A program made the translations under genes and the position numbers. The notes beneath the pieces are model-generated. The model had not been told where the DNA came from. It made no database searches and saw only the letters and a list, made by a program, of their open reading frames with translations. Source: a virus. From it: a stretch of 13,459 nucleotides of DNA. Positions 3,698 through 13,459 of this stretch are shown in pieces; positions within the stretch are counted from its first letter, which is position 1, and every line of letters begins with the position of its first letter. Location: UHGV virus genome UHGV-0077154, one strand, 5' to 3'.

Positions 3698-3820
3698 AAT
3701 GTTTCCTTTTGTTCACTGATTGAACGAGGTTACTTACTTACCGCTGGAAGTGCCAGCAAGAAGGGATGACGCTGTGCTGTTAATCACTAGGTGAGGGGGT
3801 GTCTTCTACCAGAGGGGAGG

Positions 3821-3915
3821 CCATTGGTAAAGAATCTTAACTAACGTTAGTAAAGATCCTTAACCAGCCATTAGTAAAGAATCTTAACTAACCATTGGTA
3901 AAGATACTTAACCGT
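3821..3915. repeat. Four tandem ~23-24 bp iterons (CCATTGGTAAAGAATCTTAACTAA-type)
   Basis: Copies start at 3821, 3845, 3868 and 3892: ccattggtaaagaatcttaactaa / cgttagtaaagatccttaaccag / ccattagtaaagaatcttaactaa / ccattggtaaagatacttaaccgt. They are contiguous with no spacers. Confidence 0.85.
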
Positions 3916-3917
3916 AC

Positions 3918-6892: not shown

Positions 6893-9036
6893 TGGCGAAT
6901 GGCAATATCATAGTGACTGAAACCGTAAACGAGGTGACATGGTCTGTCGATCGGACAGCCTTCGGTCGCGCCCTGAAAGCTGTTAAATCCATCAAGGCTG
7001 CTCATGAGAAACCAGCTAAGGCGCTTGAGAAGGCCCAGAAGCGGACCGTCCAGAGTGAAGGCAAAGCCGCACTAGCAGCAGCGAAAGCCCAGACAGCGAA
7101 GCTACGCCAGGCTGAACAATTGTCTAAACAGCAACAGAAACAAGCTCAGATACAAGCCAAAATGGAGCGGGACGCAGTAGCCCACGCCAATAAAATGACC
7201 TCATTACAGGCGCGTCAGTTATCCCAACAGGAACAGGCAGCACGTCAGAATGCCCGTTTAGCAGCAATATCTGAAAAGGTGAGACAGGCGAGTCGCTCCC
7301 GCGCGATGACCTACACCCCAAACATGGGCGGTCAACATTACGATCCTGGTCTTGTTTCCCGTCAGACTGACGCAATGAACCGTGGTCACGGCGCTGTTGC
7401 TGCCGACATCGCAGCCACCAAAAAGGCGATGGCCCTGGAGGAGAAGCGCCAGCGTGAGAAAGAGGCAGGACTTAAGCGTGAGGTGACTTATTACAACAGT
7501 TTGCGCCGTAGCGCTTTGACTCTGGCAAACGTGAACGGCGCTGACGTTGCAACCCGTTATAAAGCGATCAGTGCAGCAAAAGAGGCACTCAAAGCCCAGA
7601 AAGAAGAGCGTTATACGGTCGAAGAGACCCGTTTCGAAATGGCCCGTATCACTACAGAATTACGCAAGCAGGCTCGTCTGCAACAACGTATTACCCGTGA
7701 GCAGAAAGCCGCAGGTGTTCGTGCTGGTCGTGTACGCACAGAAAGCCGTGGTGGAAGTGTAGGTCTGGCTGCCGCTGGTGTTGTTGGTGGTGCGGCGTTA
7801 GTAGGTAGTATGGGCGTTTCTCGTGTTGGTCAGACCCTTCAGGGAAGCCTTGAGCGTTCTCGCGATGTGAAAAAACTCCAGCAGTATGGGATCAGCAACC
7901 TTGAGTTCGCAGCACTTCAGGATCTATCAATGAGCCGTGTTGGTTACTCACTGAGTGCTGACAAGCTGGCTGACCTCAACAAGGACACAACCGAAAAGGC
8001 CGGGGAATTGCTGAATACTGGCTCTTTCAAACGTAACAAGAAAACTGGACAGGTGAATTTCAGCGGCGGTGGTGAGTTTGCAGATATCATCAATAACGTA
8101 CTGACCTCCACCAACGGCAACCAGAAGGTAGCCCAAAAGGTGATCGGGGAACTGCAAAAACTGGATTTTCCAACATTTATCACTTATCTAAAGCAATTAC
8201 AGAAAACTTTCGGCTGGACTGATCGACAGGTGCGACACCTGGCCGAGGCTGTGAATGATGGTTCGGTCTTCCTCGAAGTGTTCAATGATGAGGGGCAGGG
8301 ACTTATCCAGCGTATGAATCAACTCGCTTCTGAAGGATGGACCCTATCTGATGCACAGCAGGCCAACCTTGATAAGCTGGCAGCTTTGGGTGCTGAGTAC
8401 AGTCGCGTGCAGATGTCGCTTGCTGACCACTTCAGCGCCAGCTTCGTGCAGGGTCTGGGAGAATATGCAGCTAATACTGACACTCTACGTCAGAAGATGA
8501 CTGGACTGATCCCAATTTCCGATGCTCTCGGCGTTGCCCTTGGTGAGCTAACCACCAACATTCTCTCCTTCGCTGGTCGAGTCGGTGAAGAACTCAAGAA
8601 AGGCGCGACACTGCCGGATGCAGTCTACAACACCGTAGTGGATGACTCTGCAAATAGCACCGCCGATTGGATTAAGGAAAAGACCGGATTTGATCCACGC
8701 AGCATCGGTCAGACGCTCAAACAGATTTACCCGTGGCTGGATAGTTTCGCTCCGAGCAATATCGGCTCAGGCACGGCGTATAACGATCCAGCGCTAGCGT
8801 TGAATGTTCCTGGTTTCAACTCAATACAACCCCAGCAACCAACGTTTACGATTCCGACAATTGACAGCATGACGCAGCGACAGCCGATTCCTGTTGCGGT
8901 CACTGGCGAAGCTGAGATTAAACTCTCACCGCTTGATATTAACGTGAATGACGGCGCTATTAACGGTTTGATTGATACAAAACTGAGGAGCTATGAGCAG
9001 GCACAGAACAACATGATCCTTGGTATTGCTCAATGA
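6892..9036 (+). CDS. 715-aa coiled-coil + glycine-zipper TM + tape-measure-like domain protein
   Basis: Roughly residues 30-290 are Q/A/K/R-rich heptad-like sequence. GGSVGLAAAGVVGGAALVGSMGV is a Gly-zipper hydrophobic segment. The next ~200 aa (LADLNKDTTEKAGELLNTGS...GGGEFADIINNV...LKQLQKTFGWTDRQVRHLAEAVNDGSVFLEVFNDEGQGL...LSDAQQANLDKL) resemble the conserved core of phage tail tape-measure proteins as I recall it. Confidence 0.8.
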   Translation: MANGNIIVTETVNEVTWSVDRTAFGRALKAVKSIKAAHEKPAKALEKAQKRTVQSEGKAALAAAKAQTAKLRQAEQLSKQQQKQAQIQAKMERDAVAHANKMTSLQARQLSQQEQAARQNARLAAISEKVRQASRSRAMTYTPNMGGQHYDPGLVSRQTDAMNRGHGAVAADIAATKKAMALEEKRQREKEAGLKREVTYYNSLRRSALTLANVNGADVATRYKAISAAKEALKAQKEERYTVEETRFEMARITTELRKQARLQQRITREQKAAGVRAGRVRTESRGGSVGLAAAGVVGGAALVGSMGVSRVGQTLQGSLERSRDVKKLQQYGISNLEFAALQDLSMSRVGYSLSADKLADLNKDTTEKAGELLNTGSFKRNKKTGQVNFSGGGEFADIINNVLTSTNGNQKVAQKVIGELQKLDFPTFITYLKQLQKTFGWTDRQVRHLAEAVNDGSVFLEVFNDEGQGLIQRMNQLASEGWTLSDAQQANLDKLAALGAEYSRVQMSLADHFSASFVQGLGEYAANTDTLRQKMTGLIPISDALGVALGELTTNILSFAGRVGEELKKGATLPDAVYNTVVDDSANSTADWIKEKTGFDPRSIGQTLKQIYPWLDSFAPSNIGSGTAYNDPALALNVPGFNSIQPQQPTFTIPTIDSMTQRQPIPVAVTGEAEIKLSPLDINVNDGAINGLIDTKLRSYEQAQNNMILGIAQ

Positions 9037-9645: not shown

Positions 9646-9987
9646 ATGAAAATGGGAAGCCTTGAGCGCTCTTACAATGACGTGATCGCGTATGCAGCCG
9701 ATCCGAATTTTGACCGCAAGACTATTACTGTCGATCTAGCTGTAGAAGTCCAGCCGGGTAGTTGCATTACCAGCACTGGAGCTGCTTATGTCTCTGGTGA
9801 TGACTGCCTGCTGGTCCTGAGCCACCACAGGGCCGAAGATGCTGCTCATATCATCGTTGCTGATCGCGGGATTTACATCAAACAAGACACCATCACCGCT
9901 GTTATGGGCGCTACCGCTGGCGCTAATGCTATTGCCGCACTCACCAAAACGGGCGCAATCCGTACTAGCGCACCGGACGCAGAATAA
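9646..9987 (+). CDS. Head decoration protein, lambda gpD-like, 113 aa
   Basis: GGGAG SD (9633-9637) is 8 nt from the ATG. Size, position immediately upstream of the gpE-like gene, and the pattern ...GDDCLLVLSHHRAEDAAHIIVADRGIYIKQDTI...TGAIRTS parallel lambda gpD (...[31 protein letters not shown]...GTAISIV, from memory). Confidence 0.6.
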   Translation: MKMGSLERSYNDVIAYAADPNFDRKTITVDLAVEVQPGSCITSTGAAYVSGDDCLLVLSHHRAEDAAHIIVADRGIYIKQDTITAVMGATAGANAIAALTKTGAIRTSAPDAE

Positions 9988-11121: not shown

Positions 11122-11325
11122 ATGAAAATTCAATTTCAGACTAACAACGGCTTCCCGTTGCTGACAGTTGCAGACGAGCGCGTTTTAGATTTTCTGAACG
11201 TTAGCGCAGTGTGTCGGTTCCTGAAGGTTCCGCGTTCCTCGTTCATGATGGACGTTGAGCAATACGGGCTTGAAAAGGCAATCAGTGAAGCCCTGCTGAA
11301 GTTAAGAAAGAATAAAAATTGTTAA
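11122..11325 (+). CDS. 67-aa HTH protein (AlpA/excisionase-like DNA-binding protein?)
   Basis: ATG 11122 follows GAGGTG (11110-11115). LNVSAVCRFLKVPRSSFMMDVEQYG resembles the MerR-type/excisionase HTH pattern. The upstream GTG-11077 extension in the track lacks an SD. Confidence 0.55.
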   Translation: MKIQFQTNNGFPLLTVADERVLDFLNVSAVCRFLKVPRSSFMMDVEQYGLEKAISEALLKLRKNKNC

Positions 11326-11386
11326 TAATCAATCTGTTGGTATTTGTTGTCAAAAGAATCATTGTGTTTGTTTTTCGCGCATTTAC

Positions 11387-11415
11387 TTGACACTATGATG
11401 CAGATTGCGTAGGCT
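11387..11415 (+). promoter_or_regulatory. Candidate promoter of the two-gene cassette
   Basis: TTGACA (11387-11392), 17-bp spacer, TAGGCT (11410-11415). Confidence 0.4.
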
Positions 11416-11509
11416 GAACATAAAATAATTGACTATTCTATATTCAAACCGGACTTCAACTTGAGAATGCTTCGTTCCTACATCTCCCTTCAAGGGGTAG
11501 GAGGATTAT

Positions 11510-11719
11510 ATGAACTTTGATATGCGTACAAACCAAAATTGTGCATCTTTTTTTAACCCAGCAACCAAGGCGTTTGTCGTCGTCGATTCGTTTGACAACT
11601 ACGAGTTCGATGTTCGTGCTGGTACTTTATCACGCACTGAATTTGTAGGCACAATCACAGCTTCGAACGATGAAGAGTTGAACAAGAAATTAGCTGAGAT
11701 CACGGCTGCTCATATATGA
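11510..11719 (+). CDS. 69-aa protein, first gene of an overlapping pair (unknown; antitoxin-like position)
   Basis: Strong AGGAGG SD (11499-11504) lies 5 nt before the ATG. The stop overlaps the next start (ATGA at 11716-11719). The gene is AT-rich. Confidence 0.7.
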   Translation: MNFDMRTNQNCASFFNPATKAFVVVDSFDNYEFDVRAGTLSRTEFVGTITASNDEELNKKLAEITAAHI

Positions 11720-12090
11720 TAACTCAACAGCAAATTGATGATTTAGTTGCAGATATTAACGATATCTTAGAAGAAGATAGAGCTAGACTGAAGATGTCAT
11801 TTCATTTTGCTGTTGATAGACTCAATGATCAGCGTAACAAACCTCCAATCACGCTAGATGAATTGAGAGTGATTTTTACAAATTTCATTGAACAACACTT
11901 GCAGACCATTTTAGGCAAAGATGAGGGGTTCTCCTTCACTATTAAGTGCCAGAAATCAGGTATTGCTATACCTTGCGCCATAGAGCATGAACTTGAGATT
12001 GGTGCAACGTGGGTAGTACAGCAAGTGATCACCATCATGCGGAATCCGAACTTTAACCCATACCATGGTGATGTCATCTTCGAAATCTAA
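11716..12090 (+). CDS. 124-aa protein, second gene of the overlapping pair (unknown; toxin/effector-like position)
   Basis: Translationally coupled by the ATGA overlap and followed directly by a strong terminator. I recognise no motif. Confidence 0.7.
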   Translation: MITQQQIDDLVADINDILEEDRARLKMSFHFAVDRLNDQRNKPPITLDELRVIFTNFIEQHLQTILGKDEGFSFTIKCQKSGIAIPCAIEHELEIGATWVVQQVITIMRNPNFNPYHGDVIFEI

Positions 12091-12092
12091 GT

Positions 12093-12118
12093 AAAAAGGC
12101 GCAATAGCGCCTTTTTTT
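12093..12118. terminator. Bidirectional intrinsic terminator shared by the cassette and int
   Basis: AAAAA-GGCGC-AATA-GCGCC-TTTTTTT: a 5-bp GC stem (12098-12102 / 12107-12111) flanked by an A5 run and a T7 run. The int stop codon (12117-12119) lies in the T-run. Confidence 0.8.
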
Positions 12119-13313
12119 ACAAATCCGGATAACACGCCAACTCGACATACTCCGATAGTTCCTTCATCCCTGGCCCTTTGCTGTAGGTTCTGAATGCTTC
12201 GGTTTTCGCTTTTTGTTCGGTATGTCCAGTGATGGCTCCGATCCGTTGTTCTGGCACCCCTGCACGGTCTAAGCAGGTGATGAACATTCCCCGTAAGCTG
12301 TGAAAACATTGCCGATCTGTAGCGGTTGGCAATGTGCTGTCACGTAGCCGGGTAAACTTTTGGCTGTACCACGGACCCCGCTTACCATCCTTCCGAATGA
12401 TGTTATTAGACTGAGCCAGAAGATATTCACCGCTGTTATTTGCCAGATGCTTATCAACAATCCCCATCAGCAGCGAGTGGATCGGAACATACCGCACCCC
12501 GGCTACAGTCTTGGACTTGCTGACAAAGAAACATCTGACACCCTCCAACATTACAATTTCATCCCGCTTGATGCTGGCGATCTCATCAAGTCGCATTCCT
12601 GAATACAGCCCAATCAGTATGACATCGCGTAGAACGTCATCCGCTTCTCTGACAAGTGTTTGCAATTGTTCAGGTTCAAACGGCTGATAACTTTCTATCG
12701 TGCGACGTGCTTCGAGGTTATGACCGTGAAACGGGTTACTGTCGGGGATTGCGTCATATCGACGTTTGGCGAACTCGTACAGACTCCCTAAAGAGGTTAG
12801 CCAGTTTTGCACGGTCTGCGGTGCTGCCTTTTTCTGTTGGCCTTCAATGAAGTCTGTAACCGTTCTGCGTCCTATCTTGTTCAGACTAATATCAACTTTA
12901 CCGATACTCTGGAGAAATACTTCCACCGCTCGCGCGGATTTGCTGAGTGTGGAAAATGCCCGACGTTCACTATAAACCGTCATGTATTCATCACGGATGA
13001 CTGCCAACGTTGGGATAGGGGAGACTGCTACAGGCGTACTCTTGGCCTGTTTGATTGTGGTGTGGAGTGTGGTGATCGCATTCTGGATGCGAATGTCTTC
13101 CCGATCAGGATTCAACAGGGCTTTCAGATTGTTGAACTCAATCAACATGTGATTTCTGAAGTGACGAGCCTTAAGGATGTCTTTTGTCCCGGTGGATTTT
13201 CGCCAGGCTCGTTTGTTGTCAAACAGGTGACGCATGTACGCAGGTACAAAGACCTGAAAGATCCATACGCCCGAATGACTTTGAAAAAGATACTGATTGT
13301 TCTTGATAGACAT
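12117..13313 (-). CDS. int: Tyrosine recombinase / phage-type integrase, 398 aa
   Basis: Catalytic signature visible: ...YSGMRLDEI (Arg), HSLRGMF (His-x-x-Arg), ITGHTE (His), FRTYSKG (Tyr). It sits next to attR with its 5' end facing the tRNA-derived repeat. Confidence 0.95.
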   Translation of the reverse strand: MSIKNNQYLFQSHSGVWIFQVFVPAYMRHLFDNKRAWRKSTGTKDILKARHFRNHMLIEFNNLKALLNPDREDIRIQNAITTLHTTIKQAKSTPVAVSPIPTLAVIRDEYMTVYSERRAFSTLSKSARAVEVFLQSIGKVDISLNKIGRRTVTDFIEGQQKKAAPQTVQNWLTSLGSLYEFAKRRYDAIPDSNPFHGHNLEARRTIESYQPFEPEQLQTLVREADDVLRDVILIGLYSGMRLDEIASIKRDEIVMLEGVRCFFVSKSKTVAGVRYVPIHSLLMGIVDKHLANNSGEYLLAQSNNIIRKDGKRGPWYSQKFTRLRDSTLPTATDRQCFHSLRGMFITCLDRAGVPEQRIGAITGHTEQKAKTEAFRTYSKGPGMKELSEYVELACYPDL

Positions 13314-13375: not shown

Positions 13376-13435
13376 AACGAGAGCTTCCCAAGCTCTATAC
13401 GAGGGTTCGATTCCCTTCGCCCGCTCCAGTCTCCT
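13376..13435. repeat. attR copy of the direct repeat: displaced 3' fragment of tRNA-Gly (13376-13428) plus 7 nt; not a functional tRNA
   Basis: Identical to 2-61. The sequence upstream (..GGGATGGAGT) diverges from the tRNA body (..AATGGTAG), so the acceptor 5' strand and D-arm are missing. Confidence 0.9.
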
Positions 13436-13459
13436 CATAAATTAACAAGTTATAATTTA

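Follow-up and report, generated by a model that had tools for sequence, protein, structure and literature searches.

The UHGV virus genome UHGV-0077154 (13,459 nucleotides; this whole stretch is referred to as the window) carries two small, overlapping genes next to its integrase gene that very probably represent the type II toxin-antitoxin (TA) operon KreTA, for which a translation-blocking mechanism is proposed below. The module as such is already known; an essentially identical pair was validated experimentally in 2025. The first gene, kreA (11510-11719, + strand), encodes the antitoxin KreA (69 amino acids (aa), pI 4.6), which is predicted to form four beta-strands and then a helix at the C-terminus, and the second gene, kreT (11716-12090, + strand), encodes the toxin KreT (124 aa), which has a predicted RegB-like fold and is coupled to kreA via an ATGA overlap. 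The pair was identified by literature lookup of the RefSeq accessions found in the annotation of a copy in E. coli (locus L001), which contains both WP_001008346.1 and WP_000632671.1. These proteins were named KreA and KreT, respectively, in the paper on the Viral AlphaFold Database (bioRxiv 10.1101/2025.05.14.653371; Sci Adv 2025;11(40):eadz8560, PMC12487901), where KreT was found to be toxic to E. coli BW25113 and to be neutralised by KreA, 3H-methionine incorporation was selectively blocked by KreT and a heterodimer was predicted with confidence in which KreA lies over the putative RNase site of KreT. KreA of the window is identical to WP_001008346.1 in 69 of 69 positions (100%) and KreT is identical to WP_000632671.1 in 114 of 124 positions (92%) over the full length. 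None of the 10 substitutions in KreT falls on a superfamily-invariant position and all invariant residues are retained. Because of these identities, and since the substitutions lie off the conserved positions, we regard the window pair as a copy of the published, validated type II TA module.

A first-pass annotation, made from the sequence alone, had already suggested a TA pair with the 124-aa gene as toxin and the 69-aa gene as antidote, which matches the published KreTA (PMC12487901). The experiment it had asked for, toxicity of the 124-aa protein and rescue by the 69-aa protein, is available in the same paper for a KreA that is 100% and a KreT that is 92% identical to the proteins of the window, and its remark that it recognised no family for either protein is outdated, the pair now having a name. 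As a TA module, the window copy thus adds little, since toxicity, rescue and translation arrest have been published for an essentially identical pair. The two copies share the genes, the antitoxin-first, overlapping operon and a neighbourhood of integrase, major capsid and "tape measure" genes (Fig. 6A legend of PMC12487901). They differ in the KreT allele with its 10 substitutions and in the backbone, which is of the DEAD helicase/HNH type for the cloned copy but has a capsid-E and a 715-aa protein in the window. Furthermore, the context was described as a "prophage" in PMC12487901, whereas here the operon lies in a complete, satellite-like island of 13.4 kb with 84-nt repeats.

Both open reading frames (ORFs) of kreTA are intact and, as read from the sequence, overlap by ATGA at 11716-11719; all coordinates stated in the first-pass annotation agree with the sequence, and so do its sizes of 69 and 124 aa and its overlap. 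Compared with the E. coli copy L001, 8 codons of kreA are changed, all 8 synonymously and none nonsynonymously, and kreT has 21 synonymous and 10 nonsynonymous codon changes. The order kreA-kreT, with the genes abutting or overlapping, is kept in 13 of 15 genome loci across Gammaproteobacteria and in all island copies. The codon changes, taken together with the conserved order of the pair, show that kreA and kreT are real genes, and both evolve under purifying selection. The region is also richer in AT than the capsid genes, as had been noticed before, with a GC content of 0.385-0.40 over 11201-12000 versus 0.46-0.51 in the capsid region.

The operon is flanked by candidate control signals on both sides. 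A putative sigma-70 promoter is located at 11387-11415 (+ strand) and consists of TTGACA (11387-11392), a 17-nt spacer and TAGGCT (11410-11415). The coordinates in the first-pass annotation were right, and the site is conserved in unrelated contexts: TTGAC-N17/18-TAG(G/C)CT precedes kreA both on another backbone (L001, L010) and at the deoD locus of Proteus (L105), and it likewise precedes the other cargos of this slot in E. coli islands. The -10 hexamer, however, matches the consensus in only 3 of 6 positions, and because this weak -10 falls below the threshold, the site was missed by a promoter scanner. Its conservation nevertheless suggests that 11387-11415 acts as a promoter. The Shine-Dalgarno (SD) sequence of kreA, AGGAGG (11499-11504, + strand), was read from the sequence 5 nt 5' of the ATG. 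It had been described as partly sequestered in a hairpin and, indeed, CCTAC (11477-11481) is complementary to GTAGG (11497-11501); the stem is even longer than described, with TCCTAC/GTAGGA pairing and an inner CCCT/AGGG stem, so that the leader hairpin (11475-11503, + strand) takes in the 5' portion of the SD. Its energy (minimum free energy (MFE) -12.1 kcal/mol, z = -1.0), on the other hand, is indistinguishable from that of shuffled sequences, 24 of 200 of which folded equally well. The stem is retained in L001 (E. coli) and L105 (Proteus) with different loops, and distant copies are without it. The hairpin is thus weakly supported as a real feature, and it may have a regulatory role. At the other end, the predicted strong bidirectional terminator was clearly recovered at 12093-12118. 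The hairpin AAAAAGGCGC-AATA-GCGCCTTTTT (GGCGC-AATA-GCGCC) at 12093-12116 abuts the stop codon of int (12117-12119), has an A-run on one side and a T-run on the other and is common to kreTA (+ strand) and int (- strand); with an MFE of -14.4 kcal/mol (z = -4.6), it was more stable than all shuffles (0 of 200 as stable).

The kreTA operon resides in a cassette that moves on its own. With megablast, the segment 11396-12117 (+ strand), spanning promoter core to terminator, gave a 91% match to E. coli VREC0864 (H1/L001), in which the cassette lies within an unrelated DEAD-helicase/HNH island; the exact mobile unit is thereby defined. To the left, the cassette is preceded by a conserved "lip" (11300-11434, + strand) that contains the end of a backbone gene for 82 aa together with the intergenic region and the promoter and is near-identical in E. 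coli islands with other cargos. The same backbone was found in approximately 22 complete E. coli genomes with approximately 92% identity, ending at 11425-11434. Behind the same lip, one set of islands carries a 52-aa gene followed by a gene for a 192-aa GNAT acetyltransferase (phrog_1758; L003 6143-6910, L120 4143-4910) and another a 58-aa gene that overlaps one of 155 aa (phrog_15367, function unknown; L002 6136-6736, L121 4133-4733); either pair is a candidate for an additional cargo of the TA or defence type. To the right, the slot is bordered by the gene of a tyrosine integrase (12117-13313, - strand; Pfam Phage_integrase and DUF6538, phrog_1). On three backbones, kreTA lies directly upstream of an integrase gene that runs towards it: the window type (L013, L016), a DEAD-helicase/HNH/Endo VII island (L001, L010 and others) and a Yersinia island (L004-L009). 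A cargo simply travelling with its integrase was considered and rejected, since kreTA adjoins integrases that are only 58-63% identical to that of the window, and a 73%-identical integrase is accompanied by another cargo. Because alternative cargos are found behind the same promoter and the cargo does not track integrase similarity, the slot is truly variable and the cassette is independently mobile. The variable, int-proximal cargo slot claimed in the first-pass annotation was therefore borne out, with three different cargos behind one promoter lip in E. coli islands. Islands that differ in backbone and integrase exchange pairs of cargo genes behind one conserved promoter, which makes the slot worth mining for new systems.

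Besides islands, kreTA was found by itself, as an insert of two genes between housekeeping genes, in Proteus (after deoB-deoD), Pantoea and a metagenome-assembled genome of Pseudomonadales, and the pair is also present on a Pseudomonas plasmid; no backbone genes of the window were found around the distant kreTA loci. On plasmid p1 of Pseudomonas silvicola (L118 8980-9493) the kreA frame is seemingly broken or fused with kreT, possibly a decayed module. kreTA may mainly serve as an addiction module, which keeps the island, or any locus in which it lands, from loss by post-segregational killing; we consider this a real possibility, if somewhat short of an even one. It is a validated TA module (PMC12487901) that travels as a promoter-to-terminator cassette on three island backbones, a Pseudomonas plasmid and chromosomal sites, and it adjoins the integrase, where excision or loss would be sensed. 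Opposed to this is the compact, well folded model of KreA (predicted local distance difference test (pLDDT) 92.8). Moreover, chromosomal TA modules are often without a stabilisation phenotype.

KreA and KreT were then compared with known families and folds. Pfam, NCBIfam and PADLOC contained nothing for KreA or KreT; in PHROGs, the two proteins matched phrog_14630 (3.6e-39) and phrog_14518 (1.4e-63), two families with no assigned function. A blastn search of the cassette region against 50,697 phage records gave no match, and sequence searches of the PDB with close and broad profiles gave chance matches only. The AlphaFold model of KreA is a confident four-strand sheet with a C-terminal helix; a structure search with it gave weak, generic matches only, including the Rhs immunity proteins TriX and TriTu. 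For KreT, the AF2 model has a helix-helix-sheet fold (predicted template modelling score 0.72) that may resemble that of RegB, an RNase of phage T4 (PDB 2hx6, Pfam REGB_T4). In a profile alignment (hhalign) against five RegB sequences, H30 of KreT is placed on H48 of RegB and R35 on R52. His48 of RegB is catalytic and the RegB fold is related to RelE and YoeB (PMC3014915). Conserved throughout the KreT superfamily are H30, F31, D34, R35, N37, D38, R40, N41, I45, E49, P86, T106, M108, R109 and F113, some of which may be catalytic residues of an RNase. KreT differs from RegB in that there is neither significant sequence similarity nor a Foldseek match: Pfam REGB_T4 did not match KreT (E <= 0.1) or any of 34 superfamily members (E <= 10). 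RegB itself depends on ribosomal protein S1 and is not known to have an antitoxin. From the ribosome-dependent mRNA interferases RelE, YoeB, HigB and YafQ, KreT is set apart by scores in the noise-prone range and by the absence of a sequence relationship; from the antitoxins of these toxins, KreA is distinguished as a folded beta-sheet protein with no ribbon-helix-helix, helix-turn-helix or Phd-type DNA-binding domain. A resemblance to a DUF4258/RelE-like motif was considered and dropped, as it had no support in Pfam. Homologues of KreA are always acidic (pI 4.1-4.8) and KreT is basic in most lineages (pI 9-9.8), opposite charges that are consistent with the predicted heterodimer.

We propose that the conserved and presumably constitutive promoter at 11387-11415 drives a bicistronic kreA-kreT mRNA, from which the acidic, 69-aa KreA would be translated first. 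Translation of kreT would be coupled at the ATGA overlap and, because of this coupling, the toxin would never be made without its antidote. Free KreT would act as a translation-blocking toxin with a ribonuclease fold of the RegB/RelE type, most probably cleaving mRNA by means of the invariant cluster of His30, Arg35, Arg40 and Arg109, and KreA would bind KreT directly and mask its active site. The hairpin at 12093-12118 would end the kreTA transcript as well as the convergent int transcript. The cassette is a self-contained mobile cargo, and its role is most likely to stabilise the island, to arrest growth upon phage infection, or both.

Several points weigh against the assignment to KreTA or the proposed mechanism. 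The KreT that was validated is a 92%-identical protein and thereby a different allele from that of the window, and the defence-system models of PADLOC-DB v2 gave no match for KreA and only a 21-residue chance match for KreT (E = 0.015). The AF2 model of KreT is only moderately confident (pLDDT 73.7) and was built from a 6-sequence alignment; Foldseek of KreT against the PDB was not significant (best E = 0.48) and the profile alignment to RegB covers 16 columns at 26% probability. There is no conserved counterpart in KreT of RegB H68, position 61 varying among K, Y and H within the superfamily, and RNase activity is a prediction for every KreT. The KreT clade of the window is atypical, being acidic (pI 4.8) with A84 and N110 in place of a near-invariant N and K. 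Finally, the usual autoregulation of type II modules is not evident, because KreA has no recognisable DNA-binding domain.

KreT turned out to be no orphan. Among the viral proteins surveyed in PMC12487901, no sequence relatives of KreA or KreT were identifiable. Here, a search with the profile of close KreT proteins yielded 368 cluster representatives at E <= 1e-3 and, with a mid-distance KreT homologue as query, 213 loci were retrieved from IMG/VR; the close KreT family had no matches in IMG/VR. In phage contigs, the KreT-like domain of approximately 115 aa stands alone or is fused to cytidylyltransferase-like, DUF5824, DUF6267 or AAA_33/zeta-type kinase modules. Examples from uncultured phages are found among the IMG/VR loci L025-L104, such as L099 (2707-4308), L046 (2609-4387) and L055 (1244-4354), and no KreA homologue was found near the KreT-like domain in IMG/VR phage loci. 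With hundreds of relatives in uncultured phages, informative fusions and well-defined invariant residues, the superfamily is, like the architecture of the slot, a modest lead. A 3359-aa match with 7 matched stretches was discarded as a repeat artefact, since it is a LapA/RTX adhesin. A PAS domain was considered for the unit of approximately 115 aa, which occurs within many large proteins, and was rejected because there was no Pfam PAS match and because the motif and the partner domains differ. Within the KreT family, the Enterobacteriaceae clade, of which the validated E. coli KreT is a member, is acidic with A84 and N110, and the other lineages compared (L109-L119) are basic (pI 9-9.8) and keep the near-invariant N84 and K110.

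The phage fusions also bear on the chemistry of KreT, as their cytidylyltransferase-like, AAA_33/zeta-type kinase, DUF5824 and DUF6267 partners suggest nucleotide or RNA-end chemistry. KreT could block translation without cutting mRNA, through the modification or processing of tRNA, rRNA or the ends of nucleotides, for instance, and its likeness to RegB would then be one of topology only. The marginal sequence link to RegB, the lack of a Foldseek match and the occurrence of KreT-like copies without KreA in phages would fit. However, the invariant His/Arg cluster sits at the position of H48 and R52 of RegB, and a selective block of translation is typical of RNase toxins; we therefore consider such a chemistry unlikely and keep to mRNA cleavage as the proposed activity of KreT.

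The island that carries the cassette was delimited by direct repeats of 84 nt (96% identical) at 2-85 and 13376-13459, which end in a tRNA 3' end (…GGTTCGATTCCCTTCGCCCGCTCCA). Since these repeats correspond to attL and attR, the window represents one complete, tRNA-integrated island of 13.4 kb; ARAGORN found no whole tRNA within the window. A scan of approximately 20 window ORFs with Pfam and PHROGs revealed matches to a tyrosine integrase, a major capsid protein of the lambda-E type, a 715-aa tape-measure-like protein and, weakly, a replication initiator, and the island further encodes RAZR. The core genes of P4 (psu, sid, delta and the alpha-type primase-helicase) had no matches in the same scans, and the identification of the island as a P4-like satellite was rejected on the grounds that P4 hallmark genes are missing. 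In P4-like satellites, defence systems are located between psu and int (Rousset et al. 2022, PMC9122126), and the first-pass annotation had drawn a parallel to this hotspot. As to position, the parallel held: in both cases the space between int and the last gene of the backbone is a variable slot, filled by differing systems in related elements. It failed as to the element, since the island has no P4 hallmark genes and encodes its own capsid protein of the lambda-E type, and the cargos seen in the slot of the window type are not known defence systems.

The gene for RAZR (622-1257, + strand; 211 aa) is located at the attL-proximal end and was detected by PADLOC as PD-T7-4 over the full length (4e-98). 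PD-T7-4 is a validated defence gene that has been renamed RAZR, for ring-activated zinc-finger RNase (PMC13017515). Its presence on the same island raises the possibility that KreTA is also an anti-phage module of the abortive-infection or helper-interference type, in which infection would free KreT and thereby shut down translation of phage or helper mRNA. We hold this tentatively, as a possibility to be taken seriously that stops short of being probable. It would agree with the variable, int-adjacent slot whose promoter is common to other small-then-large cargos, with the defence systems of P4-like satellites at the analogous psu-int position (PMC9122126) and with RegB, the closest fold, which inactivates mRNAs at GGAG (PMC1702504). 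Yet PMC12487901 reports no phage assay of KreTA, PADLOC was without a match, many kreTA copies stand alone among housekeeping genes, off islands, and the other cargos of the slot are likewise uncharacterised. With RAZR and KreTA on one island, testing KreTA for phage defence would be worthwhile. A wider and more speculative picture, which we consider rather doubtful as a whole, would combine the slot with the phage superfamily: KreTA would be one interchangeable cargo of a new defence or interference hotspot in non-P4, capsid-encoding satellites, in which the promoter of the slot drives inserted cassettes, and KreT would be the domesticated, antidote-controlled branch of a large, undescribed, RNase-like phage superfamily that is carried antidote-free by lytic marine phages, frequently as a fusion to nucleotidyltransferase, kinase and DUF6267 modules.

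Further features of the island were noted outside the kreTA slot. The most AT-rich stretch of the window is 1201-2200 (GC content 0.35), which may be a second cargo slot. Directly after RAZR lies a 272-aa ORF (1283-2101, - strand) that had no match in Pfam, PHROGs, NCBIfam or PADLOC. Four tandem repeats of approximately 24 nt (GCCATTGGTAAAGAATCTTAAC…) are located in the intergenic region at 3820-3916 and resemble origin iterons or an operator array. A direct repeat of 26 nt (85% identical) is present at 7842-7867, within the gene of the 715-aa protein, and at 9654-9679, at the start of a 113-aa gene upstream of the capsid gene.
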